Part shown: piece by piece, positions 39,489-58,240 of the stretch
Layout of the letters: each line of letters begins with the position of its first letter
Position numbering within the stretch: position 1 is the stretch's first letter
Virus record (IMG/VR): IMGVR_UViG_3300035208_005856
Coordinates: 1 to 64,000 of that record
Reading direction: 5' to 3' (one strand)
Origin: a virus
Taxonomy: Duplodnaviria; Caudoviricetes
DNA length: 64,000 nucleotides
The notes under the pieces: generated by a model
Database searches by the model: none
What the model saw: the letters and a program-made list of their open reading frames with translations, nothing else
What the model was told of the DNA's origin: nothing
Program-made: the position numbers and the translations under genes

Positions 39489-40056
39489 TCTGTCTTCTCT
39501 CCCATGCCATTTTTATTGGATGCTCTTTTTCGTCTTCTTCTACTTTTTGACTAACCTCATAAACCTCTTCTGGTTTTAAGTAAGGTAATGAACTTTTTAT
39601 CATCCCTTCAGTCAAGTACTTAAAGAAATTCTCATAGTGAGATACGCAGTATCTCACTATGTTAGCATTGTTTGTGGCGTTATTCTTATCGCCTTCCCAT
39701 CCGCATTCATGCCAAGCGCTAAAAATAGCGTGTCTATTTCTTTCTAGTTTCTTGGCCTCGAATTCATCGTAATCATCAGCCTTGTAAATTGTGTCCAAAG
39801 TGTTTTCAAGATAGCCAACGACCTCTAAGAAATTCTTCTTATCAGGAGTGCCATTGAAGCCAGATACACAAGCAAAGTACAAATACTGAGCCTTTTCTTT
39901 TTCCAGGTTCTTTATGGCCAATAACTTATTTTCAAGCATCTTAGGAGTATAGGAGTTAATGAGTTTCTGGTAGTCTATTGCCATGCCGTTAGCCGACAAT
40001 AGTACTAAGCTCTCGTTTAAATTTCTGGCATCAACCCTGACGAACCTTTCAGGTTC
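39475..40056 (-). CDS. Tail assembly chaperone T segment (reached by -1 frameshift)
   Basis: The -1 frame is open from the slippery site (KKEPERFVRVDARNLNESLVLLSANGM...) to the stop at 39475. Confidence 0.7.
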   Translation of the reverse strand, partial: EPERFVRVDARNLNESLVLLSANGMAIDYQKLINSYTPKMLENKLLAIKNLEKEKAQYLYFACVSGFNGTPDKKNFLEVVGYLENTLDTIYKADDYDEFEAKKLERNRHAIFSAWHECGWEGDKNNATNNANIVRYCVSHYENFFKYLTEGMIKSSLPYLKPEEVYEVSQKVEEDEKEHPIKMAWERRQNAKK

Positions 40057-40655
40057 TTTTTTTTTACAAGTTTTAGAACTGTATCCATGATACAGTTCTG
40101 TTCAATTACGGTATTAAACGCATTACACCATTGCATCCAGGTGGCTGTTTTTTCGGCTAATGCCACGCTGCTTTCAATAGCCTCAATTAATCGAAGTCTT
40201 TTTCTGAGATCGTGTCTTAGAAGGAATCCTAATACTATTCTTTTTATCTTAACAAATAAGGAACAAAAACCCATCCCCTGTTCTAGTACTTGGCTTAGCT
40301 TATAGATCTTATTATTAATCTCAAACAAGGCTGTTATTTTATTGTATGTCTTCTCGTCAACACAGCTCAAAATAAAAGATTGAAGATTGATGTTATATTT
40401 TTCAAGAGCATTCCACGAAATAAGCATTTCGCTAAACAGAAGCTCTGAGTTATTAGCATCTAGATATAATTGAATTTCATCTTCGCCCTTATCTCCCAGA
40501 TAAGATAGAATAGGAGACAGTAGCATATCATATTGTTTAAGACTCAGGGCATGACTTTCATAACTACCCAGCCCAAGAGTTATTAATCTTGGACTTCTTA
40601 ACTCCACATCCTGTTCGGTTTTATCCGATTTTAAAGCCAACCCTTTGTTTTTCAT
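40017..40655 (-). CDS. Tail assembly chaperone G
   Basis: Ends with in-frame A-AAA-AAG shortly before its stop; lies upstream of the TMP. Confidence 0.7.
   Translation of the reverse strand: MKNKGLALKSDKTEQDVELRSPRLITLGLGSYESHALSLKQYDMLLSPILSYLGDKGEDEIQLYLDANNSELLFSEMLISWNALEKYNINLQSFILSCVDEKTYNKITALFEINNKIYKLSQVLEQGMGFCSLFVKIKRIVLGFLLRHDLRKRLRLIEAIESSVALAEKTATWMQWCNAFNTVIEQNCIMDTVLKLVKKKNLKGSSGLMPEI
40056..40062 (-). other. -1 programmed ribosomal frameshift heptamer A_AAA_AAG
   Basis: GTA AAA AAA AAG AAC in the G frame; the -1 frame joins the downstream ORF without a stop. Confidence 0.75.
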
Positions 40656-40685
40656 TTTGCACCCTATTATTTACCCTGTAGTTAT

Positions 40686-40714
40686 ATTATACAAAATTTA
40701 ATACAGTTATTCAA
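40686..40714 (-). promoter_or_regulatory. Sigma70-type promoter for the chaperone-TMP operon
   Basis: TTGAAT-17 nt-TATAAT, 30 nt upstream of ATG 40655. Confidence 0.65.
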
Positions 40715-40887
40715 CTATTTATTTAAATCTTTGCTCAGTACTTTTATTATTTCTTCCACTAAATTAGTCTTTGGCGTTTTGTTCCCTTTCTTGTTATCTT
40801 GTAACTTCATAATATAAATAGCTACCCACAGTAATAGAGGGACCATCCCTAAAAACACTATAAAAACAGTAGCTAACTCCCAATAAA

Positions 40888-41280
40888 TCATTCCCCATCT
40901 CCAATGTCTACAACCACAACACGCTTGCCTTCCTTCTTTGCTATATCCACAGCATTTTTAGTTCCCGAACTAACTCCGTCCCAGAATGCTATCATAAAAT
41001 CACAGTCGCCCACTATCTGTCTATTCCTTATCATACCCGCCGGATTTTTCTTACTGGGGTCAGTGGATTTATAGCCTTCCCATTTTGCATAGTGAATAGT
41101 TATTGACAATTGTTTTTCCCGGGCGTATCTTTCAACTAAGTTACCAGCCCCGGAGGCAAAGCCACCTGATATTATATGCCATGGCCCTTGGTTATTTTCT
41201 TTTTCTAGTACCATATCGAGTTCATGCTTAAACTCAGGATAATAATTATAATTCCGGCTACCAACCACTGCTACTTTCAT
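40888..41280 (-). CDS. YspA/SLOG-family (DUF2493) protein
   Basis: VAVVGSR, IISGG..SGA, AGMIRNRQIV, AFWDGVSSGT. Confidence 0.85.
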   Translation of the reverse strand: MKVAVVGSRNYNYYPEFKHELDMVLEKENNQGPWHIISGGFASGAGNLVERYAREKQLSITIHYAKWEGYKSTDPSKKNPAGMIRNRQIVGDCDFMIAFWDGVSSGTKNAVDIAKKEGKRVVVVDIGDGE

Positions 41281-41927
41281 TGCCCTAAATCTCCTCTATG
41301 TCCCAGACTCCAAATTTTTCTCTAAGTTCTTTAACCAACTTTGGTGTAAATTTTATTCCCTTTGAGGTAATTACTATATAATTATTTTGAGTCAAGTACG
41401 CTAATAATAGGTCTGTTATGTCATGGGCTATTCCCAAATCTTTTTGTACCTTATCCTTAAATTCTAGTGCATTTGAGTTATATTCCCCTTCAGTTAATTT
41501 GTATAGACCTTTATTTATTCCGTTAAGTAGCGAGACTAACAGTTTTTCGTATTTATTTAAGTTCATTATCTTGGCACTCCTTTAGCTTCTAAAGAAACTA
41601 CTAAAACCTTTCACTATCTTCCCAAGGAGAGACTTGTCTTTAGCAACTATACCGGCCCTAGCTTGCATTTGAGTCTCAGGTTGTGGCTTAATGCTTTCGT
41701 ATTTGTAACACCAGTTATCAAAATAATATACTTTGTCATCCAACCGGCATTTACCATCCAGCCCCTCTTTGTCAAAATAATTATTACAGGTAGTACACAT
41801 ATAGGGTTCTAGGGCACTAACATAAGGCCTGTCTCTTGATCCACCTGGATAATTTGCCTTTCCGGTTCTATTCTTATAATCTTGGTGGTACCCTGCTTCT
41901 CTATATACCATAATGTCTTCTCCTTTG

Positions 41928-42746
41928 TTATTTAGCGTAACAGTATATACATGAATGTTGACAAGTTCCGTATTCTCCAATATCTACAGTCTTTACACAA
42001 CCACATTCTTTCCTGCTTGTTGACTTTGAGAATTCAAATGGCTTACCTATTAGTTTAGTAATTAACTCAGGGTCTATGCAATGAGCTTTCTTAATCAGTT
42101 CGTCACCATAGGCGTTAAATCGAATGCTGTCTTCGCAACATGCCGATACCTCAATACCATATTCTTTAGCAATATCAGACAAGTCGCAAGCTACTTTTTT
42201 CTGAACCTCTAGGTAGTCATATACCTCTATCCCAGCGTCTTTAAATGCGTTTTTGGTTTTATTATACATATCCACAAAAGAAATAGTGCATTGGGTTATT
42301 GCTCCGTCGCCCAATATACAAAGTTGGTCTGCTATAAAATCAAAGTGATTAACATGCCATTCGGGGGTAAATTCCTTGGTGATTATAATAGGATCGTATC
42401 TCCATATTATTGGAATATTACTGTTATGCATTGTTATGTCATAAACCTGACGGACTGATTCCATTACATCTGGAACGTTAGGCTCAATAGAAAAGGGATA
42501 GCCGTTAATTGTAAATTGAAAATAATATTTAATGCCATAACTATCCAATATATGCAGTTTTGGAATCAAATGTTCGTAGTTTTTAGACCAAAAAACAATA
42601 CAATCAATATCGTCCCTCTTTATACTGTACCTGTTTTTAGTATAGGGATTGGTATATTCCAAATTCCCAGCCTCTAACTGTCTTAAAAATTTTCTATGGT
42701 GAAAGGCCGGAATATCAGTTCTCATACTCGCTGATATTATTGTCAT
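41928..42746 (-). CDS. DUF1848 family radical-SAM-related protein
   Basis: IISASMRTDIPAF, VFWSKN, WRYDPI, CGC...DIG.Y.TCQHSCIYCYA. Confidence 0.88.
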   Translation of the reverse strand: MTIISASMRTDIPAFHHRKFLRQLEAGNLEYTNPYTKNRYSIKRDDIDCIVFWSKNYEHLIPKLHILDSYGIKYYFQFTINGYPFSIEPNVPDVMESVRQVYDITMHNSNIPIIWRYDPIIITKEFTPEWHVNHFDFIADQLCILGDGAITQCTISFVDMYNKTKNAFKDAGIEVYDYLEVQKKVACDLSDIAKEYGIEVSACCEDSIRFNAYGDELIKKAHCIDPELITKLIGKPFEFSKSTSRKECGCVKTVDIGEYGTCQHSCIYCYAK

Positions 42747-42943
42747 CTTATGATTTCTCCTTGGTTTTAAATAATTTTTTACAAAAATCGGTTCTTAAAA
42801 TACTATAATCCTTATCGTAGCATAAATGTGAATTATTCAATGCGCATTTATATGATTTCAATTTTTTGCATTTAGAGATGCTACAATGGTTTTCGTCTTC
42901 CACTACTACTCTGTTTTTAAATTCTACGCCTACCATTTAATTA

Positions 42944-43672
42944 TTATTCCTCCAATGCTTTATATTGTATTATCTTAATATCAAAACTATCATCATATAA
43001 CCTATCCCCAAATTCTCTCCTAAATAGGGGTTCAAGAATATTTTCACTAGATTCATGATCACATGCCGTAAACGTGAGATAGAAATTAATACCTGACCTT
43101 AAAATAACATCTATGTTTCTAAGGATATCATCTGTATCAAAATTATCCACTCCGGTATTGTCTCTCCATTCCCTTTTACTAAGGCCCTTTATGTTAACAG
43201 CATAGAGTGCATTATTACGTTCTAATCGTGATAGTTCGTCAATTTTATAACGCCCTTCGACAAGAATAAAATCAGAATGAAAAACGAAATTAGATGGCAA
43301 TTTGTTCAATATCTTATGCCAATATCTGACGTATAGAGCAGGAGCTCCTCCCATTAGGTGAAATACTTCTTGGCCGGAATTCTTAAAAGAAGAGATTAAT
43401 TGATCGGTATCTAAATAATGCGGGATTCTATGAACCCCGCCTGGAGTAACATAACAATAAGGACATGCCAATGGACATCCGTTCAACTGGACCACAAATT
43501 GATTAGACACTTCTTTCCCTAGTCTTTTAAGGCATATTTCTGAAAATTTATCATATCCGCCACCGGCCGTTTTTGTGTTACATTTTCTAAACAGACCTCC
43601 TTCTAATAGATCATCTTTTTTAATATCTCTGCTCTGCTTCATGCAAATAAAATTTACAGGCCACGTTGTCAT
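42944..43672 (-). CDS. Radical SAM protein
   Basis: CPLACPYC (CxxxCxxC) and FHLMGGAP. Confidence 0.75.
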   Translation of the reverse strand: MTTWPVNFICMKQSRDIKKDDLLEGGLFRKCNTKTAGGGYDKFSEICLKRLGKEVSNQFVVQLNGCPLACPYCYVTPGGVHRIPHYLDTDQLISSFKNSGQEVFHLMGGAPALYVRYWHKILNKLPSNFVFHSDFILVEGRYKIDELSRLERNNALYAVNIKGLSKREWRDNTGVDNFDTDDILRNIDVILRSGINFYLTFTACDHESSENILEPLFRREFGDRLYDDSFDIKIIQYKALEE

Positions 43673-44512
43673 CTATAACTCCTCCTCTAATTCTTTTTTA
43701 TGAGCATTATAATACTTTGCTCCTAGTACATAAATAAATCCTCTCTCGATGACATAATACCAATTAGTTCCATCTTCGCCATGGTAGTTACGGTCTACGT
43801 CCATGAACCCGTGAGTTACTAACTCCTCTAACAACGGAGAGCTAGAGTTATAACATTTATTTCTATAAGGATCTTTACATTTAGAGCTACCAAAAAGAGC
43901 ATGGTGTAATTTTTTATATGCTTCGTCTGTTAACACAGTCTTAGCCTCGTCTTTAAAGATATTTACTGTCTTTGTTTCTTCTGTTAACATACTATTTTCT
44001 CCTTCATCATGGTAATATCTTTATTTATTTTTTGATACAAAGTTAAATTAAATTCATTATTATCTAATGCCGTTTCATTAATAGCATCCAAAACCTCAAG
44101 CGTTTTTAGAATATTATTGTCTACTTTGCCAATATCATACATACAATAAGCTGCTAATTCCCATTTTGGATACATATCAAATAATTGTTTTGCCGAGAAA
44201 TAAGCACTTAGTACACAAAATATATCATCATTACTGAGTTCATCAATAGCATTATTTAAATTGCCTTTGGAATAACCATACTTTTCGTAAATATCTATCA
44301 GTTCATAAAAATAATATTTATTTAAAGGCATTGTCTTTTGGGATTGCCACTTACCGTTGTCTATTTCTAAAAAGATTTTCATAAAAAAGTAAAGAAACAG
44401 CCAAGAAATAGTTACGTTTTTTATTTGGCAAAAAACTTTAGGCATGGAATCTAATCTTGATACTACCCTTAATAAATCAATTTCCGAGAATTGAGTAATT
44501 CCTAATCTACGA

Positions 44513-45043
44513 CTAGTCACTATCTCCTCCCCCTTCGTCCTTAAATAGTATATCATCGTTATGGTTCTTTATGAACCACTGGAAGGTATCAATGCGTTTT
44601 TCTTTAACCAACCACAAAAGACCTTTTTGTCTGCAACAAATTAAGTGCAATATATCGTATACGTATCTGTTATAAAAATCGCTGCCATTTAATAACTTAA
44701 AGTCCATCTTGTCAAACATGTAGTGTGCAATGCCTGCGCTTCTAGAAAATCCAGCCTCACAGTTTATATATACATGTTCATTATTTATTTTTGCGGTATA
44801 AATAACATCTAGAACCTTTTCTCCCATCTCAAAATCAAATAACTTGAAATTATATTTTGTCAGATCCTTATGCATGTGAAAATAATCAATGTCATCAAAC
44901 TCAAGTTTAAGGATCTTAGATTGGTTCCATGCAGGATGATAAATAAACGGCTCAGCCTTTGGACTTTTAATAGAAATAAGCGGAGCATCAAAACCGTTTT
45001 CGGTTATAAACTCTTGCGGGTGGTAACTAACTGTTAATGCCAT
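44513..45043 (-). CDS. Predicted protein-tyrosine/dual-specificity phosphatase
   Basis: CX5R loop INCEAGFSRSAG; LEFDDI; N.YVY. Confidence 0.8.
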   Translation of the reverse strand: MALTVSYHPQEFITENGFDAPLISIKSPKAEPFIYHPAWNQSKILKLEFDDIDYFHMHKDLTKYNFKLFDFEMGEKVLDVIYTAKINNEHVYINCEAGFSRSAGIAHYMFDKMDFKLLNGSDFYNRYVYDILHLICCRQKGLLWLVKEKRIDTFQWFIKNHNDDILFKDEGGGDSD

Positions 45044-45463
45044 TATTTATTTCCTCCCATAGTTTATCAACACATTTTTGCTCCTCAGCCATTTGAATAA
45101 TTTTATTAAGAATATCAATATGCTTTAAATCTTTATCCTCTTCTTCTCTTAGTGATAATTTTAAAATAATAGCTTCTCGCTTTACATAAGGAAGCATCAT
45201 AAAGCCATAAGCTAATGATTTAAAGTTAACCATTTATTTAAATATCCTCCTGGTTTTCTATTTCAATTCTAATAGCATTAACTTTAAGAGAGTCCTTAAA
45301 TATTACTTTTGGATATTTACAGTTATCGCAACATCTAACATCTCTAATACAATCTACGCAACATAAATATGCGTATTTATCAAAGTCTTTAAGCTTTACC
45401 ACTGCCTCTGGGTATTTATCAATTAATGACAACAAGTCCTTAACTAACATTTTCTAATTTCCC

Positions 45464-46864
45464 TTAACATTTGTGTGCAAAGATAGTAACTACATTGCCA
45501 TGGGCCGGAGGGGATATCTTAGTAGTATCCATTAACCTAAGTAGGTTTTCTTCAGTCTCATGTCGTGTGCCATAAAATGGGTGCTCGACTTTTTCTACTT
45601 CAAAACCGTAATCCTCAAGCATATTACATAGTCCTTGTGTCCCAAACAACGAAACATGTGTCTTGTCATGTAACAACCTAAACTTATCACCAAATCTTTT
45701 AGCCGTAATACTCTCAAAGTCTGGAGTTGTTATAATCAACTTCCCTCCTATTTTAAGTAAATTATTTATTTTTTGGATATATACTACCGGATCTGGCAAG
45801 TGCTCTATAACATGATACATATTAATTGCCTCAAAAGACATATCAGGATAGGGGCTTTCTAGCAGGCATCCAATATGGATGTTCCCGTATTCTCTTGCCT
45901 TCTCTCCTGCATATTCAGATAACTCAGTCCCGTATTTTAGCCACTTACCATTAATAGCACTTAGGATATATCCAAATCCACAACCTACGCTAAGAACAGC
46001 ACCGGGCTCTTGGGTATTTATATAGTCAATAACGTGCTTAGCGTCTTCTAAATACTGCCATTTCTCTCTCTCTTTATTACGTTCTTTGCCATCAGGATCT
46101 ATTGTCTTGCCCCAGTAATTATCTTCGTAGTTAATAACCCCTGCCGGAATTCTTTTCCTAAAATAATTACCAGATTCTTTTCTCTCTCTCTTTTTAAGTA
46201 ATATACTAGCAAGTTCGAGATCAGCAAGGGAATCAATGTCTAATGCATCCTCTTTGGGGATAAGGATATAACCATATCCTCTTCCTAACCTATTATCTAA
46301 TCTGTTATCATTTATAAACAAAGATTCTCTTGTCATTACCCATCCGTTTCCACATTCTCTTATGGCGGGGGTAGAATCCTGTCTGCGTGGCCGGTCAATT
46401 ATTTCTTGGGTATTAATATAAAAACCAAAATCTTCTGTCGTCATACAACATGAATCAACTTCTTCTGTTAATACTTTTTCAATAGCCTTATCAATATACT
46501 CGGTTCTATTCAAAGGACTAGTGGCTTGTAGAAAAACTATTATATCAATTATAATTCTTAATGAGTTTTCATATACGCTGCAAACTGTCTTTAGTGCAGC
46601 CTCAGATCTAGCATAATCATCAGACTCACTAGAATGACGCCATACAACACTAAGTCTGCTTTGGTCAGGATAGTTATGTACAACATCAGCTATTAGATCG
46701 CAGTCAGTAGATACCACAACTTCTGATATGTACTTAGATTTAAGTGCGGCATCAATCTGGTAATAAATAAGAGGCCGGCCATTAACCAATCTAATATTCT
46801 TTTTATAAATACCCTTACTTCCGCCTCTTGCTGGAATTATTGCTACAATTTTTTTGTCTTGCAT
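45464..46864 (-). CDS. NeuA-type acylneuraminate cytidylyltransferase fused to class I SAM methyltransferase
   Basis: N-terminal IPARGGSKGI.KKN...PLI, VSTD, LQATSP, DID...D; C-terminal VGCGFG, HVIEHLPDP, GGKLIITTP. Confidence 0.88.
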   Translation of the reverse strand: MQDKKIVAIIPARGGSKGIYKKNIRLVNGRPLIYYQIDAALKSKYISEVVVSTDCDLIADVVHNYPDQSRLSVVWRHSSESDDYARSEAALKTVCSVYENSLRIIIDIIVFLQATSPLNRTEYIDKAIEKVLTEEVDSCCMTTEDFGFYINTQEIIDRPRRQDSTPAIRECGNGWVMTRESLFINDNRLDNRLGRGYGYILIPKEDALDIDSLADLELASILLKKRERKESGNYFRKRIPAGVINYEDNYWGKTIDPDGKERNKEREKWQYLEDAKHVIDYINTQEPGAVLSVGCGFGYILSAINGKWLKYGTELSEYAGEKAREYGNIHIGCLLESPYPDMSFEAINMYHVIEHLPDPVVYIQKINNLLKIGGKLIITTPDFESITAKRFGDKFRLLHDKTHVSLFGTQGLCNMLEDYGFEVEKVEHPFYGTRHETEENLLRLMDTTKISPPAHGNVVTIFAHKC

Positions 46865-47677
46865 CTAACTACCCCTATTTCTTCTTTCTCTTTCCACTGC
46901 TTCTTCAAATCCTCTTAGCCAAGCAAATACACCTGCGTCTGTCTCCGTGTAAAACCATGGCATAGTATCGCCAATAGTTATAGTCCTGAGTATAACTTCT
47001 TTACCGCCTACGTCTCTTCTTGCTCCATGCACCTTTGGTCTTTTGCCTATTAGTTTTTCTATAGCATCAAGCTTTGACCGTATCTTTTCTTCATATCCCA
47101 TTAATGTCAACCTCGTAATTCCTAATTAGTCTATCCCTGTCACTCTCCATGTTCTTTATAGCCTCTTGAAGTTTGAGGTCTATCGCTGATTTCATGAGTT
47201 TACATAAGGGATCGTAGTGCAAACGAATTAAATTATGTAGCTCATCTCCAAAAGGACCGAGATTTTTTATTGTACAATCAATACAACCCTTCTCTTCTAC
47301 TTGTCCTTGGAAAAATTTTAGCATGAAAATATTAGGCTCAAAAAAAGGATGATCATCTACTCTCTTTAATTTATCCTTCAGGAACTCAACCTGAGACTTC
47401 CAATACTTATAGCTTGCAATTAGATCATCACCCAACTTGACATAGGCCCTTGCTTGTTCTAGTTTATTTTTTGCCATGTTATTTACTCCTGAATGATAAC
47501 TAAAGCTTTTATCTCGTCTTCTAACTGTTTAATATTGTTTTCAGCGTCAAGTATTAATTGATTGAGTTCTTTTCTTTTGTTTTTATTAATTTCCAACTTC
47601 CTTTGTTGGTCTCCTATTCTATCCTTTAAGCTATTAATCCTATAAAGATCATCAACCTTAAAAAGTTCTGTTGGCAT

Positions 47678-48130
47678 CTAGCTACCTCTTCCTGTCATTA
47701 TATTGTCTTTTATACAGGCGTCTAACACCCCGGGATCTAATGTACAATTCTTATCCAGTTGATAAGTCTTATTTGTTCTGTTATCTGTGCACTGTCCTCT
47801 TTTTTCGTTATAGGTTCTTATCTTATCACCCAGAGGGACTGTTTGTTCTCGAAAATGGATTTTGGCCTTGTCAGAATAGTATTTAGTTAGTCTCAAGCTC
47901 ATTTCTTTCACAGCCTTTTCGGCATTCTGGATTATAGACCTTTCGTCATGAATACTTACCATTATTTTTGATTCCCTGTGATATAACCTTACCCCGTTCA
48001 GGTGCCTATTAACATTCTGGCCACCTTTTCCGTTACTAAAAAATGATTTTTCTATTTTAAGACTATAGGCAAATGTCTCATCCTTTTTGTGAAGAGATTC
48101 TAACCAATCCTTAAATGACATTTTTGCCAA
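47678..48130 (-). CDS. Truncated peptide chain release factor-like protein (GGQ domain)
   Basis: GKGGQNVNR...VRLYH...ERS..QN...A and KIRTYN...TD.R; no PxT/SPF domain. Confidence 0.85.
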   Translation of the reverse strand: MAKMSFKDWLESLHKKDETFAYSLKIEKSFFSNGKGGQNVNRHLNGVRLYHRESKIMVSIHDERSIIQNAEKAVKEMSLRLTKYYSDKAKIHFREQTVPLGDKIRTYNEKRGQCTDNRTNKTYQLDKNCTLDPGVLDACIKDNIMTGRGS

Positions 48131-48890
48131 AGCTCACTTCCTCCCCTGGAAATTCTCTAAACCTGAACATATCTGGTATTATCTTAAAAACAGAGTCCTT
48201 TAAAAACAAGGGAATATCATATAACCTGATACCAGATATAAGTTCGTCAATAGCCTCTCTGATGGCTATAGCATTATAATCGTCTTTCTTCAGACCCTTT
48301 AACGTTCCTATAATAGCCCAGTCAATACAAAGTTTAAGTATCTTTTCGTCATCTTCACTAAAAGCTAACCGCTCAAGGATGGGCTCAAAACTCACAAACT
48401 TAGTTTTACACTTGACCCGTGATAGTATATGCATCCGATCAAGATCTTCAGTCTTTGTTATTGTGACACCTGTCCAACAATTGTCAGGGAAGACATAATC
48501 TAACATACCCTTCGGGTTTTTGGTGAGCAAAATAAAAGTATGCTGTGGATATTTTTTACAATAATCTAAAACCATTTTCCTAACTTTGTCAGCAGGGTAA
48601 TAAGCTTCTCCTTCTATATCCTCTGACCATAATCTCCACTGCCAGTCTCCAAAAACGTCTGCCATGGAGCCTAGGAATATTTTACAAGGTTTTTTTGGTG
48701 GTTTCTTGCTGAACTTGTCTAACCACAAAGTAGGCTCATATCCCCACGGATATATTCCACTTAGTCTTGTTTCTGATAGGTCGAACCCGTAGCAATAAGA
48801 GCATCGGTGCTCGCAGCCCGTTACCGGATTAAAAGTATATCCCTGTTCTCCATTTGGACCCATGGTCCATTCAATACCTGTCTTGTTCAT
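48111..48890 (-). CDS. DUF5131 (phage Gp37/Gp68) radical-SAM-like protein
   Basis: TGIEWT, FNPVTGCEHRCSYCY, SMADVF, LLTKNP, FVSFEP. Confidence 0.88.
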   Translation of the reverse strand: MNKTGIEWTMGPNGEQGYTFNPVTGCEHRCSYCYGFDLSETRLSGIYPWGYEPTLWLDKFSKKPPKKPCKIFLGSMADVFGDWQWRLWSEDIEGEAYYPADKVRKMVLDYCKKYPQHTFILLTKNPKGMLDYVFPDNCWTGVTITKTEDLDRMHILSRVKCKTKFVSFEPILERLAFSEDDEKILKLCIDWAIIGTLKGLKKDDYNAIAIREAIDELISGIRLYDIPLFLKDSVFKIIPDMFRFREFPGEEVSFGKNVI

Positions 48891-50353
48891 TAACCTTCTC
48901 TTCTCCTTTGTCTATTTCGTAAGGGGATGTCTTTTGAAAAAACTCGGAAAGATTGGCCTCTATGTTTCTATAATAAGCATCGTCAGACTCTAGTTTTGAG
49001 GCCGAAGATATAGCCACCTCATTTTGATAATCAAAAAACTTAATAACTATACAACCACTTGGTTTAAGTGGATCATAGGTTATTATCTTCCTTGCTGTTT
49101 GATCTCTCCATTCCTTTATCACGAGCCCTCTCCTCTCTTACTTTGTTTATAATAACTCTACGTCCATCGCATATATAGCCATGGGCCAAGGCATCTAATT
49201 CCATGGCTTTTATTATATCCTTGTGTCCGCAGTAAAAACAAGAGACTGGGACTGTCTCGTTGATTACTTTATTATATACCCTACTAACTCTTAAATAGTT
49301 TATAACCATAAAACCTAAGCCAGTACCCAACGCTATATAAAATATAGTGGCAATTATTTTAATAATAAAAATTAAAGTTATAAATCCAGGTATCCAATTA
49401 AGTGTTTCTGCCATGGCTTCCTCCTAAGTTTTTAAGTGTTGGCCTCTTTTTTCTATCTATCAAAGATATAAGTCTTTCCATCTTAATTATAAGCTGGTCA
49501 AAAGCAAAAGAAATTTTATCATTAATACTAACGCTATCATGAAGATATTTAATAACTTGATCTGCTTCTTTTTTAGTAAGTTCCCTTCCCTTGCCTTTAA
49601 TTAGGAATAGGGGGTCTATAAACGGAAGATTAAGTTGATTTTTCATATCTATTCTCCTTTATCAAAGGTATCTTTACAAAATTTACATCTCTTGGGGTTG
49701 TCAAACTCTCCCATTTCGTCCGATTTATCAGAAAAGGGACAGTCCCAATATAGATCATCAATCATTTCTAAAAAAGAACAGGATCTATCACAAATATTGT
49801 CATCTTCTATCTCTATATTTGAAGATATAAAATCCAGAAAATTGGTTATATTCTTTATTATAGTCATTTAAGCCTGTCCTTTCCTAATTTGTCTAGTAAC
49901 TTACTAGCCTTATAATAATCAGGCATAGGTAGTATAACGCTAACAATTCTAGATCCTATTCCCCAGAAAGATATAAAAGAGTGGTCAAGTTTAAAGCTAA
50001 TTTTGGCCCTTGACTTCTTTGGTTCTGGCGGATTAATTGGCTCGTCGGTAATAAAAATAGATATTATATTGGTTATTAACTCGAAATCTATCAGAAACTC
50101 AATATCCCACAGCCTGTGAAGGATATGCCCAGATATTATCCTCTTGCTTGAGTTGTAAATCATTTGATAAAATAGGTAGTAAGTAAAAAACAATTCAGGC
50201 AAGAGACCGGATAAAAGCAAATAATTTTGGGTGGGGATGTGCATGGTATATTTAGCCATAAGCCAGCCCCTTGCCTTTAGCTCTTGTTTTTTTTGCTTGG
50301 CATTGGCCTTGCGCTTATAGTATTTAACTTTTTTTCTTTTGTATTTCTTTTTT

Positions 50354-50986
50354 TTAGGTGTTATTGCCAAGGGCCGGCTCCTGCTTGGTTGTTAACAACA
50401 GTATTTCGTTATTTAAGATTTTTTTAATATATTCAATGCCTTCTTTGTTCTGGGTTTTTGTTCCTTTTATTTCTTTCTTAGGAGAACTAAAGTCATAATA
50501 GCCTTCTACTAATGGTTTTAGTTCTGGAAGTGTCTCCAATAACTTATTAGAACTCGTAAATTGTTTTATAGTTCTTTCTATTTGTCTAGCCTTAGATAGG
50601 TAGAAATCTTCTAACTCTTTCCTTTCTTTTTCTAATGAACGAATAACCGATAACTCAATCTTTGTCATCTTGGGTAGTAAATCGTCATGTAAAGAAGATG
50701 GAAATGTAATACTCCTCTCATTGTATAAAAAGACTTGTTCTTTCTTGCCTTCTACATTAAAATATATTGAATATTGAGATTTGTTTACTTTCCATTTTTC
50801 TAAAACCAGCCTATCTTCTTCTGGAATAAGTAGTTTTAATTTTTCGTTAACCATATCGTATATCTGTTGACTAACTTCTTTCTTTTTTGTATTAACCTCG
50901 ACCTCTACTTTTTGTTTTAATAAGGTTGTTAACCACCTCTTAAACCTAGCATCAAGCCTGACGCTTCTTAATTTTGTCTCTGACAT
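50354..50986 (-). CDS. Nmad5-like (nucleotide-modification-associated) protein
   Basis: N-terminal RL, C-terminal IKQFTSSNKLLETLPELKPLV resembling the Nmad5 T...LLE.WPE motif. Confidence 0.45.
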   Translation of the reverse strand: MSETKLRSVRLDARFKRWLTTLLKQKVEVEVNTKKKEVSQQIYDMVNEKLKLLIPEEDRLVLEKWKVNKSQYSIYFNVEGKKEQVFLYNERSITFPSSLHDDLLPKMTKIELSVIRSLEKERKELEDFYLSKARQIERTIKQFTSSNKLLETLPELKPLVEGYYDFSSPKKEIKGTKTQNKEGIEYIKKILNNEILLLTTKQEPALGNNT

Positions 50987-51868
50987 GAAAAGACCTCCTT
51001 TACTTTGTTTTATTAAAAACAGCAGTTCCTAATCCCCATCCAATAATAATAGATACGAGAAGAATAACAGTTCTAAGTGATTCGATTACAGTATCTAATT
51101 GCACTGATAGGTGTTCCATTAACTATCTCCTTTTATTGTCTACATATCTCATGACTAAGCCCATAACCGTGAACACAACTATATAAATTATAGTTGCTGA
51201 TATAATAAATAACACAACATCTACCATAACTTACATACCCCGTAGATTAGGTCCATGGTCAATAACGCTTCCCCATATTCCTCTATTTTTATAACATTTA
51301 GCGTAGGGATTGTTTGTTTAACAACCGCACAATGTTTTGATCCATAAAGAGGGCCTAAGTTACTTTTTTTCATTATAGTATGATTTATTATATGACGACT
51401 TAATCCACAAGAGATATTTATTAAATATTTTCTGTAATCCTCTTCAGAATCTAGTTGCTCTAGATTTAAGAACTCGGCAATATGGACCCACTTATTTATG
51501 CAACAGTATGCTCTTTTAAAATCTAATGGCAGCGTTATTGGTTTAATACTATTTGCTTCTATCATGCTCCTAGTAAGCCATAATCTTTTATCGGGTCTTA
51601 GTGTATCAAGATTTATAAAACTTACATCTGTCCAGCTGCTAAGTTCTTTAACTCTCTTATCTTGACAAGAAGCTATTTCTGTTCTAAGTTGTTGTACAGC
51701 CGGAGGCAATTCCTTTTTCTCAAAAATCTTATCCCTAAATGGATTAGTCATCATCTTTTTATTATCCTTTTCCTATTAAGTACCCCAAATGTATTATTTC
51801 TAATTATAACCCATGAGCCTAGAAAATAGTTCATGTTATTAACTTTTGTAAATTTTATTTTTAGGGAC

Positions 51869-51898
51869 TTGTAATACTTTGGGGGTATATGCTATAGT
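51869..51898 (+). promoter_or_regulatory. Antisense sigma70 promoter
   Basis: TTGTAA-18 nt-TATAGT with TGn extension, in a non-coding gap of the - arm. Confidence 0.6.
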
Positions 51899-51904
51899 AA
51901 AAGA

Positions 51905-52062
51905 ATCGAAATTTCATTTTTTTAATCCTTCGATGGGCTACAAATTCCTCCTTGACTAATGTGTGTGTCTCTCGGCCCATCTTTTATTAACGGTAATCGA
52001 ACACAGAGCAATAAAAAGAAACATTTCATCCCCCATATCCTTACAAGGGTATGGATTTTTTT
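51905..52062 (+). ncRNA. Candidate ~160-nt small RNA with anti-RBS segments
   Basis: Bounded by a promoter and an intrinsic terminator; stem GATGGGC/GCCCATC presents TTCCTCCTT in its loop. Confidence 0.55.
52033..52062 (+). terminator. Intrinsic terminator of the candidate sRNA
   Basis: CCATATCCT-taca-AGGGTATGG followed by aTTTTTTT. Confidence 0.65.
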
Positions 52063-52083
52063 ATTTGGCGAAAAAAGAGCAAC

Positions 52084-52120
52084 AAAAAAAGCGGTAGTCA
52101 CCTATGTTATAGACTACCGC
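52084..52120 (-). terminator. Intrinsic terminator after tail tube gene
   Basis: GCGGTAGTC/GACTACCGC 9-bp stem followed by T7 on the - strand. Confidence 0.8.
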
Positions 52121-52138
52121 AGAGAAAAGGGGTACTTT

Positions 52139-53077
52139 TTAGTACTGTTGACAAACTACAGATTGTAGTTCGTTTAACAAGTCATCAGGGACTTGTTTGA
52201 TTGTAATTGGAACTTCAGGTTTAGCTGTTTTTCCACCACCTATTGTGCTGTCAGTTGTTTCGCATTCGGCACAAGGGATAAAATAAACATCTACTTTACC
52301 AGAGTCACCAGATGGAAGATGTACTTCTAGTGGCAAGTATTTAGCAATACCGGCTCCAGCGAAGCCTTCCCACTTTGTTTTAACACCAGCCAAATTGGTA
52401 TATAGTGCACCGTTTACTAACGCCATGGCATAGTCGTCGTGCCCAATGAGTTTGGATGTGAAACTAATATTTACACCAGACACTACGTCATAGTCACCAG
52501 AGTGGGCTGGTGTCATTGTTACTTTTTGTTTGGCGTTGACTTTTTGAGTTTCGTCGGTTGTGTCAGGTAATGAATTTCTTTTGATTCCGTAGGCATTTAC
52601 AGAGTATAATGCTTTTGCAGCTACGTCAGCGGCTAACAGGGCGTTACTAGATGCTTTGTAATACACTGGGATATCAGGTGTACTTTGAGTTTGTGCAGCT
52701 CTGTTTGCTGGTAACTGTGGGAAGAAAACTGAAGCTTGGCCGTTAATAAATACTATTACGCCAAGTACTTTTGCTGGCATAATAACATTATTAAGTAGTA
52801 TTCCTTTTGCACCTGTACCTAGTGTGTGGCTTACTGGATTGTTTTTAGCGGTAATAGCCAACCCGCCATGAAGAGTATCCATTCCCAAATAAGCTAATTC
52901 TACCGTAACAACGTCCCCATCGGCTAGTCTTACTCCTGGTCTTTCTTTGTCAGGATCAGTTGTTAGGTCTGTAATAGTAGCACTTGCCAAGTCGGCAGGT
53001 GGTGTTAAAGGGGTGGCATCTGGTGTATAATAAAATATGTTTCCGCCGCCCGGAATTGCTTGGTTCTGCATTGTCAT
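52139..53077 (-). CDS. Major tail (tube) protein
   Basis: Position after head-tail genes, strong RBS, downstream terminator, beta-rich tube-like C-terminus. Confidence 0.65.
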   Translation of the reverse strand: MTMQNQAIPGGGNIFYYTPDATPLTPPADLASATITDLTTDPDKERPGVRLADGDVVTVELAYLGMDTLHGGLAITAKNNPVSHTLGTGAKGILLNNVIMPAKVLGVIVFINGQASVFFPQLPANRAAQTQSTPDIPVYYKASSNALLAADVAAKALYSVNAYGIKRNSLPDTTDETQKVNAKQKVTMTPAHSGDYDVVSGVNISFTSKLIGHDDYAMALVNGALYTNLAGVKTKWEGFAGAGIAKYLPLEVHLPSGDSGKVDVYFIPCAECETTDSTIGGGKTAKPEVPITIKQVPDDLLNELQSVVCQQY

Positions 53078-58135: not shown

Positions 58136-58240
58136 CTATCTTCCTTTTTTTTGCTTCTGATTTGCTTTGGTCTGTGTAGGTTTTTGCCCATTGCTCTTTT
58201 TCTGATTTTTGTCCTTGCCCTTGTTCTTGTTTCCTGCCAT
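58136..58240 (-). CDS. 34-aa Lys-rich peptide between portal and protease
   Basis: MAGNKNKGKDKNQKKSNGQKPTQTKANQKQKKGR; TAATG coupling to the portal stop; AAGGAG upstream. Confidence 0.4.
   Translation of the reverse strand: MAGNKNKGKDKNQKKSNGQKPTQTKANQKQKKGR

Follow-up and report, generated by a model that had tools for sequence, protein, structure and literature searches.

A candidate antisense RNA unit facing the tail-tube operon of a Caudoviricetes phage

What occupies the long non-coding gap behind the tail-tube gene of a tailed phage, and on which strand is it read? The question is raised by IMG/VR record IMGVR_UViG_3300035208_005856 (Duplodnaviria; Caudoviricetes), a genome of 116,749 bp with direct terminal repeats, the first 64 kb of which (64,000 nucleotides, nt) form the window analysed here. 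All genes between 27296 and 64565 lie on the minus strand, among them those for the terminase, the portal and an SU10-type major capsid protein, and a 384-nt gap (51755-52138) separates the gene for a 312-amino-acid (aa) tube protein from that for a 177-aa orphan. A first-pass annotation had placed in this gap, after the tail-tube terminator, a plus-strand small RNA bracketed by a promoter and an intrinsic terminator, with three C/U-rich segments whose complements resemble ribosome-binding sites (RBSs), and had proposed that the RNA occludes the RBSs of several host or phage mRNAs in trans. The gap and all of the elements named in it are indeed present.

The answer that we tentatively favour is a convergent antisense or insulating RNA of ~160 nt, which would act in cis on minus-strand RNA escaping the tube terminator. 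Such a unit would be transcribed from the site at 51869-51898 to the terminator at 52033-52062, head-on to the tail-tube operon, and its RNA would be fully complementary to any minus-strand RNA that passes the tube terminator (hairpin B in Table 1). It would mask the starts of short open reading frames (ORFs) on the minus strand, of which a 22-aa peptide with the shape of a type I toxin is the most plausible, and RNase III attack on the resulting duplex, or collisions with polymerases that have read through the terminator, could add to the effect. The firing of the promoter, the RNA itself, the read-through RNA opposite it and the action of the one on the other are each what we infer from the arrangement described below. 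The C/U-rich "anti-RBS" segments most likely just mirror motifs on the minus strand that resemble RBSs.

The predicted unit and the facing terminators

The terminator of the proposed unit, hairpin A, is its sole clearly non-random feature. On the plus strand it consists of a G+C-containing hairpin directly before a U-tract, as expected of an intrinsic terminator. The genome was searched for stems of at least 8 bp followed by at least six T in eight positions, with block-wise dinucleotide shuffles as the null; 11 such sites were found, versus 3.5 in the shuffles. Of these 11, about four are antisense sites within genes, roughly the number expected by chance, and the intergenic ones are therefore mostly genuine. 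When the gap itself was shuffled 1500 times, a plus-strand terminator arose 14 times (about 1%). The energy of hairpin A is -10.7 kcal/mol on the plus strand versus -6.6 kcal/mol on the minus strand, a difference of 4 kcal/mol that arises because a G.U pair turns into a C/A mismatch on the minus strand. The plus-strand intrinsic terminator of the first-pass annotation is thus present, rare in shuffled sequence and strand-biased.

Hairpin A opposes hairpin B, a perfect 9-bp inverted repeat (I16) of -15.9 kcal/mol, at a distance of 30-40 nt and with both U-tracts between the two, as where convergent genes end. Since the plus-strand terminator is strand-specific and stands within an all-minus block, plus-strand transcription is expected to reach 52033-52062. 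The nearest plausible source of that transcription is the promoter-like site ~160 nt upstream, which was also recovered by a promoter/terminator scan. Extended -10 boxes of the form TGnTATAAT stand ahead of operons in this phage and in its relatives as well, and five of the 22 genomic copies of this form are intergenic.

A short non-coding transcription unit on the plus strand of the gap is plausible, because its terminator is significant, strand-asymmetric and opposed to the tube terminator, and because the plus strand of the gap contains no ORF with a Shine-Dalgarno (SD) sequence. Plus-strand ORFs of 26, 44 and 69 aa were rejected, as they lack an SD and cross the promoter or the terminators. 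An RNA of this kind probably exists. The small RNA of the first-pass annotation therefore stands as a plausible unit, whereas the modular trans-acting mechanism attached to it is unsupported. The stem that had been noted in the RNA (GATGGGC/GCCCATC) was found at 51932-51938 / 51975-51981, where the predicted fold extends it to 8 bp, and the alternative ATCGAA/TTCGAT stem is likewise present in the sequence.

Table 1. Coordinates of the gap features, the genes on either side and the inserted block (window numbering)
Feature	Coordinates	Strand	Details
Sigma-70-like promoter candidate	51869-51898	+	TTGTAA-18-TG-C-TATAGT; TTGTAA 51869-51874; TG-C-TATAGT 51890-51898
Predicted non-coding RNA, ~158 nt	51905-52062	+	start placed from the -10 box; predicted from promoter and terminator
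C/U segment 1	51912-51931	+	complement of GAAGGA-N8-ATGAAA (18-aa ORF start region); unpaired probability 0.47, UCCUUC 0.63
8-bp stem around a 34-nt loop	51932-51981	+	GAUGGGCU/GGCCCAUC; loop shows CCUCCUU 51947-51953; fold prediction
C/U segment 2	51941-51953	+	reverse complement AAGGAGGAATTTG; carries CCUCCUU
C/U segment 3	52022-52034	+	complement of GGGGGATGAAATG (22/35-aa ORF start region); unpaired probability 0.50, UCCCCC 0.66
Hairpin A, intrinsic terminator	52033-52062	+	9-bp stem 52033-52054, 4-nt loop, then A-T7 52055-52062
Hairpin B, tube-gene intrinsic terminator	52071-52120	-	arms 52112-52120 / 52091-52099, 12-nt loop; T7 and second T-run on the minus strand
22-aa micro-ORF	51956-52024	-	MFLFIALCSITVNKRWAERHTH; 26 aa from ATG at 52036; start score 7.8
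35-aa micro-ORF, other frame	51922-52029	-	MKCFFLLLCV...; start score 4.1; AAGGA-N8-ATG, SD inside hairpin A
18-aa micro-ORF	51861-51917	-	MKFRFFYYSIYPQSITSP; GAAGGA-N8-ATG; start score 7.5-7.6; not hydrophobic
Orphan strong SD	51941-51953	-	AAGGAGG, then TTG-TAG, no ORF; SD energy -11.2 kcal/mol; start score -1.9
Inverted repeat I1, 14/16	51781-51796 / 51872-51887		flanks zone with minus-strand promoter-like sites TTTACA-18-TATTTT 51852-51823 and TATAAT 51808-51803
177-aa orphan gene	51221-51754	-	first of the inserted block; no family, no homologue
Probable tail tube (major tail) protein gene, 312 aa	52139-53077	-	ORF with strong SD; last in the head/tail-tube block
Inserted block, ~11.5 kb	about 40656-52070	-	absent after the tube gene in 7/7 relatives; from synteny

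A number of observations weigh against a cis-acting RNA at this site. Its target would exist only if a strong terminator is read through or if a minus-strand promoter has escaped notice, and the best minus-strand promoter matches upstream of the micro-ORFs reach only 7-8 of 12 positions by eye. The plus-strand promoter candidate is weakened by its 18-nt spacer and its TATAGT -10 box. Equal or better scores are obtained at 76 sites in the genome, about 0.08 being expected per 250 nt upstream of a terminator, and TGnTATAGT occurs in 14 genomic copies with no intergenic enrichment, the one at 51869-51898 being the only intergenic copy; the promoter of the first-pass annotation is there as a sequence, but as evidence of a promoter it is weak. 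The predicted RNA (minimum free energy -28.4 kcal/mol, z = -0.41) is no more stable than its shuffles, and the putative unit is absent from relatives. The starts that would be masked are also mediocre: on a position weight matrix built from the phage's own gene starts, which gives real genes a median of 11, those of the 18- and 22-aa ORFs score 7.5-7.8. In the 22-aa peptide, hydrophobic residues run for only 12 positions, and the orphan AAGGAGG, which has no ORF, is left unexplained if the minus-strand motifs are simply read as real RBSs.

Beside the unit, inverted repeat I1 brackets the zone that separates the plus-strand promoter-like site from the beginning of the 177-aa gene; one of its arms falls in the spacer of the promoter-like site. 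The two arms could serve as paired operator sites or form a stem in RNA that reads through; the motif is not repeated elsewhere in the genome.

Relatives and the inserted block

The 312-aa protein is nearest to the Phage_TTP_17 / major tail protein clusters of a protein atlas (feature score 0.90, structural TM 0.44-0.60), and this lead, backed by gene order, makes its identity as the tail tube probable. When 1.84 billion representatives were searched in full by HMMER with this protein, seven relatives were obtained, six at 35-40% identity and one at 26%, none being closer than 40%. The order from the major capsid protein to the tube is kept in all seven contigs, and in each of them a gene of ~185-217 aa stands 14-173 nt after the tube gene. 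In both relatives compared, this next gene is a homologue of the 212-aa gene that lies at 40017-40655 in the window (E 2e-19 and 2e-27), and one further downstream gene is syntenic. An intrinsic terminator occupies the position of hairpin B in the relatives whose gap is long enough (L005, L006, L008 and L009); in L005 and L008 it is followed by a TGnTATAAT promoter and then by an SD and ATG. No antisense unit was found in the gaps of the relatives.

By this synteny, an insertion of ~11.5 kb separates the tube terminator from the promoter of the next tail gene, both of them ancestral. The former is retained as hairpin B and the latter as TTGAAT-17-TATAAT with TG at 40714-40686. The block carries the 177-aa orphan gene as well as genes for small membrane peptides and for Nmad5-like, radical-SAM, cytidylyltransferase-methyltransferase and GGQ proteins; no repeats common to both of its junctions were found. 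The candidate RNA is lineage-specific and sits at the tube-side seam of the insertion. Since the gaps of the relatives hold just a terminator and a promoter, the RNA unit would have come with the insertion or after it.

In this regard, the locus resembles a moron, an independent transcription unit gained by a phage late operon (PMC3594210). As in morons, the extra DNA is missing from related phages at the same position, lies in the tail gene region and has its own predicted promoter and terminator, of which the terminator is present and the promoter match is weak. The G+C content of the gap (~0.31-0.37) is close to that of most of the inserted block (0.29-0.38), compared with 0.40-0.44 in the tube gene. 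Unlike classical morons, which are protein-coding and usually co-oriented, the unit proposed here would be non-coding, inverted and attached to a far larger inserted block.

Two further observations concern these genes and their relatives. A 6-bp hairpin, GAACCT...AGGTTC, stands at 40042-40062, where it directly follows the run of A in a frameshift site proposed for the 212-aa gene (minus strand), and may be a frameshift stimulator; its detection as a plus-strand terminator was a false match of the terminator scan. In relative L008 (947-2185), a TnpB-like gene (Cas12f1-like_TNB) is inserted among the head genes, between those for the 146-aa and 207-aa proteins.

Against 50,697 phage records, blastn with the gap and tblastn with the tube protein returned no match; a related-locus search of viral contigs with the tube and major capsid proteins found none, and a search for homologues by shared words recovered, for the 312-, 177- and 210-aa queries, no protein other than the query. 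The gap has no paralogue elsewhere in the genome. The sole match of a loop-plus-stem scan of viral contigs (L002) lies inside a high-G+C coding region and was rejected as chance, as was an 18-nt inverted repeat (I2) around the unit considered as a miniature inverted-repeat transposable element, which is at chance level (an estimated one pair or so per 384 nt) and has no second copy.

Among sequencing runs, all sampled words of the stretch occur in one landfill run (2018) and one groundwater run (2022) of unrelated studies. Two wastewater runs labelled "RNA-Seq", which we judge to be probably DNA, contain just 151-nt pieces inside or upstream of the tube gene. No run recorded as RNA contains the stretch, a result with no bearing on expression either way, and the run contigs compared do not cover the candidate RNA, apart from one unrelated low-identity piece of 40 nt.

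The insertion also provides the strongest of the competing explanations, namely that the gap is non-functional junction DNA whose promoter-like site and SD-like motifs are chance or vestiges of gene starts since lost, with hairpin A at most insulating the tube gene against antisense transcripts from the inserted block. The gap is lineage-specific, relatives having only the short spacing given above at this position; the promoter is at chance level, the motif count ordinary, the fold not special and no target was found, and the orphan SD before TTG-TAG resembles a truncated gene start. Against this stand the terminator, which is strand-specific and expected in only ~1% of shuffles, and the economy of phage genomes, which seldom retain 300 nt of useless DNA (the coding share here is ~90%). 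The presence of the stretch in the landfill and groundwater runs also counts against this reading, if weakly, because both runs may be sources of the assembly. On balance we consider junction DNA a rather unlikely account of the gap, if one to be taken seriously.

Pairing in trans and short reading frames on the minus strand

The mechanism of the first-pass annotation, in which exposed C/U segments, above all the loop CCUCCUU, would block the SDs of several host or phage mRNAs, shares with the cis reading the terminator and promoter evidence for a plus-strand RNA. The three C/U-rich segments with RBS-like complements lie where they had been described, the 3' end of the third extending into hairpin A. 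CCUCCUU is a perfect SD complement with a mean unpaired probability of 0.86 (0.51 for the entire RNA), and its minus-strand counterpart has no usable ORF. Canonical SD sites precede almost every gene of the phage, and the lack of an obvious promoter-driven minus-strand transcript over the unit makes a cis target uncertain. A window with two strong SD complements inside 125 nt is uncommon (1.8%). With an energy cut-off that counts all three segments, three or more SD-like clusters were present in 11.5% of the 130-nt windows when the sense strand of the gene block was scanned, and three SD complements are thus ordinary for the antisense of this purine-rich sense strand. Segments 1 and 3, moreover, are only about half accessible.

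The pairing check that had been suggested was carried out with RNA 51905-52032 against the translation-initiation regions of 168 phage genes. The mean pairing energy was reached by none of 100 dinucleotide-shuffled RNAs, and the best match by seven of them (p = 0.07). This control is too easy, because no SD complement survives shuffling; a second control was therefore made from 38 ordinary regions of 128 nt that hold real gene starts, each taken as its antisense. The mean pairing with the 168 starts was then -15.87 kcal/mol for the RNA versus -15.60 kcal/mol for the antisense controls, and the best match (-29.4 kcal/mol) was equalled or beaten by six of the 38. The pairing potential of the RNA is accordingly that of the antisense of any SD-bearing stretch, and no phage target beyond the controls emerged.

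The best match is the start of a 74-aa ORF (64010-64234, minus strand), where 22 of 25 nt are paired across the SD with the RNA loop at 51949-51973. Its start region (genome 64010-64247, partly beyond the window) lies within the last part of the 124-aa gene before it, and the pairing is a lead, not a finding. The start of the neighbouring 177-aa gene ranks 96th of 168. No exact or near-exact target of any C/U segment was found at a gene start of the phage, which bears out the first-pass annotation on this point. With no Rfam family and no conservation of the segments in addition, we regard a trans-acting RNA as improbable; an action in cis is favoured over it because pairing with phage starts equals that of the antisense controls and because the motif count is ordinary.

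The minus-strand micro-ORFs of 18, 22 and 35 aa, which had been named as a possible refutation of the RNA, are present. The 22/26-aa, the 18-aa and perhaps the 35-aa ORF might be real small genes, expressed by read-through or from a weak promoter. The SD-like motifs would then be their RBSs, hairpin A would only stop stray antisense transcription, and there would be no regulatory RNA. Ranked among true starts, those of the 18- and 22-aa ORFs stand at the 23rd-27th percentile, and they are equalled by ~3.5% of start codons in the background (for the 22-aa start, the 27th percentile and the top 3.4% of background). By score, the micro-ORF starts are possible but unconvincing. The GAAGGA-N8-ATG of the 18-aa ORF matches the start of the 177-aa gene in spacing and style (repeat D2), and small ORFs with good starts occur in most other long gaps of the phage.

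The shape of the 22-aa peptide, with 12 hydrophobic residues followed by NKRWAERHTH, was compared with published heuristics for type I toxins, namely fewer than 60 aa, at least 10 of 15 residues from I, V, L, F, C, M and A, and a charged or bulky C-terminus (PMC2887945). The peptide agrees with them, scoring 10 of 15 for hydrophobicity and, at its C-terminus, 8 of 10 for polar or bulky residues. Both features together are found in 2.2% of random 16-30-aa ORFs of the genome; as four ORFs were examined, the corrected tail is about 8%.

This hydrophobic-then-charged, non-random shape supports the micro-ORFs as genes. Against them, a strong terminator (hairpin B) lies directly upstream with no convincing minus-strand promoter, ORFs of 18-22 codons are expected by chance, three overlapping frames compete, and AAGGAGG is left without an ORF. 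There is no homologue, and the 26-, 35- and 39-aa peptides have no Pfam match even at an E-value of 10. The plus-strand bias of hairpin A would be only partly explained, and we hold real micro-genes to be distinctly doubtful. A role of the orphan AAGGAGG as a STAB-SD-like 5' stabiliser was considered as an idea and set aside, as no minus-strand start site was found upstream of it.

Other small ORFs and non-coding stretches of the genome are recorded here as observations in their own right. The next gap (51000-51227, minus strand) contains adjacent ORFs of 39 aa (start score 13.7) and 34 aa (8.3), each with a clear hydrophobic helix; their products may be small membrane proteins, for example holin/antiholin-like proteins or exclusion factors, and no family was found for them. 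The best small-ORF start score (15.7) belongs to an extremely basic, K/N/Q-rich ORF of 34 aa at 58136-58240 (minus strand), flanked by the portal gene and the head gene next to it. Just beyond the window, a tRNA-Cys (GCA) gene at genome 64777-64857 (plus strand; L003:1178-1258) lies in the divergent gap that ends the minus-strand block. Farther on, the region at genome 92559-96669 has gaps of 563, 1037 and 553 nt with small ORFs and with intergenic terminators at 92940 (+), 95003 (-), 95075 (+) and 96137 (+), and could hold further small RNAs.

Comparison with known antisense systems

Phage cis-antisense RNAs are exemplified by sar of P22, which masks translation, and OOP of lambda, which acts via RNase III cleavage (PMC5415839). 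Like these, the unit proposed here would produce a short RNA from its own promoter and terminator, opposite a phage operon and complementary to an RBS or a coding end; of the two signals the terminator is present and the promoter is just a weak consensus match. The targets of sar and OOP, ant and cII, are promoter-driven mRNAs, whereas the sense RNA here would be only terminator read-through with putative micro-ORFs. The known RNAs are also shorter (69-77 nt versus ~160 nt) and share no sequence similarity with the candidate.

A second comparison is provided by the Ibs/Sib type I modules, in which ibs reportedly lies entirely within sib, as described by Fozo and colleagues in 2008. In common with these modules, the locus has a tiny ORF, hydrophobic apart from its charged or bulky C-terminus, that lies wholly inside a candidate antisense RNA gene of ~150 nt in a long intergenic region; the antisense RNA would span both RBS and ORF. 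It differs in having no recognisable toxin promoter, no tandem duplication and no match to a toxin family, and in the brevity of its hydrophobic stretch (12 residues).

C/U-rich segments complementary to SD regions are a property of the c4 antisense RNA of P1/P7 and of the C-rich small RNAs of Firmicutes (RsaE/RoxS type). Several such short segments, at least one of them in an exposed loop, and an intrinsic terminator are found here too. Unlike these RNAs, the candidate has no Rfam match at an E-value of 10, no target beyond controls and no conservation of the segments. In the whole window, Rfam gave no match to the candidate RNA at the gathering threshold (including C4 antisense RNA, RsaE and the modelled type I antitoxins); when Rfam 15 was applied to 51000-53000 at an E-value of 10, the best matches (E 0.42-8.8) were far under their gathering scores and on the opposite strand.

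The candidate thus does not fit a described family, having no Rfam, toxin-family or conserved-target match; if real, it would be one more phage antisense RNA. It is unlikely that the locus is something more distinctive, either a phage Ibs/Sib-style type I module, with a 22-aa membrane-active peptide inside an antisense RNA of ~160 nt, or a three-seed anti-SD RNA that damps late translation of host or phage. Were either true, it would represent a new regulatory RNA in a lineage without a cultured member.

The claim of a small RNA at this position would not surprise a specialist. The firmest result of the present study is the insertion context, in which a block carrying nucleotide-modification, radical-SAM and sugar-activation genes follows the ancestral tube terminator. 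If the RNA is real, it would add another case to the small antisense or SD-masking RNAs that phages have at the borders of their operons, and its position at the seam would hint at a way to shield an inserted block from transcription of the late structural genes.

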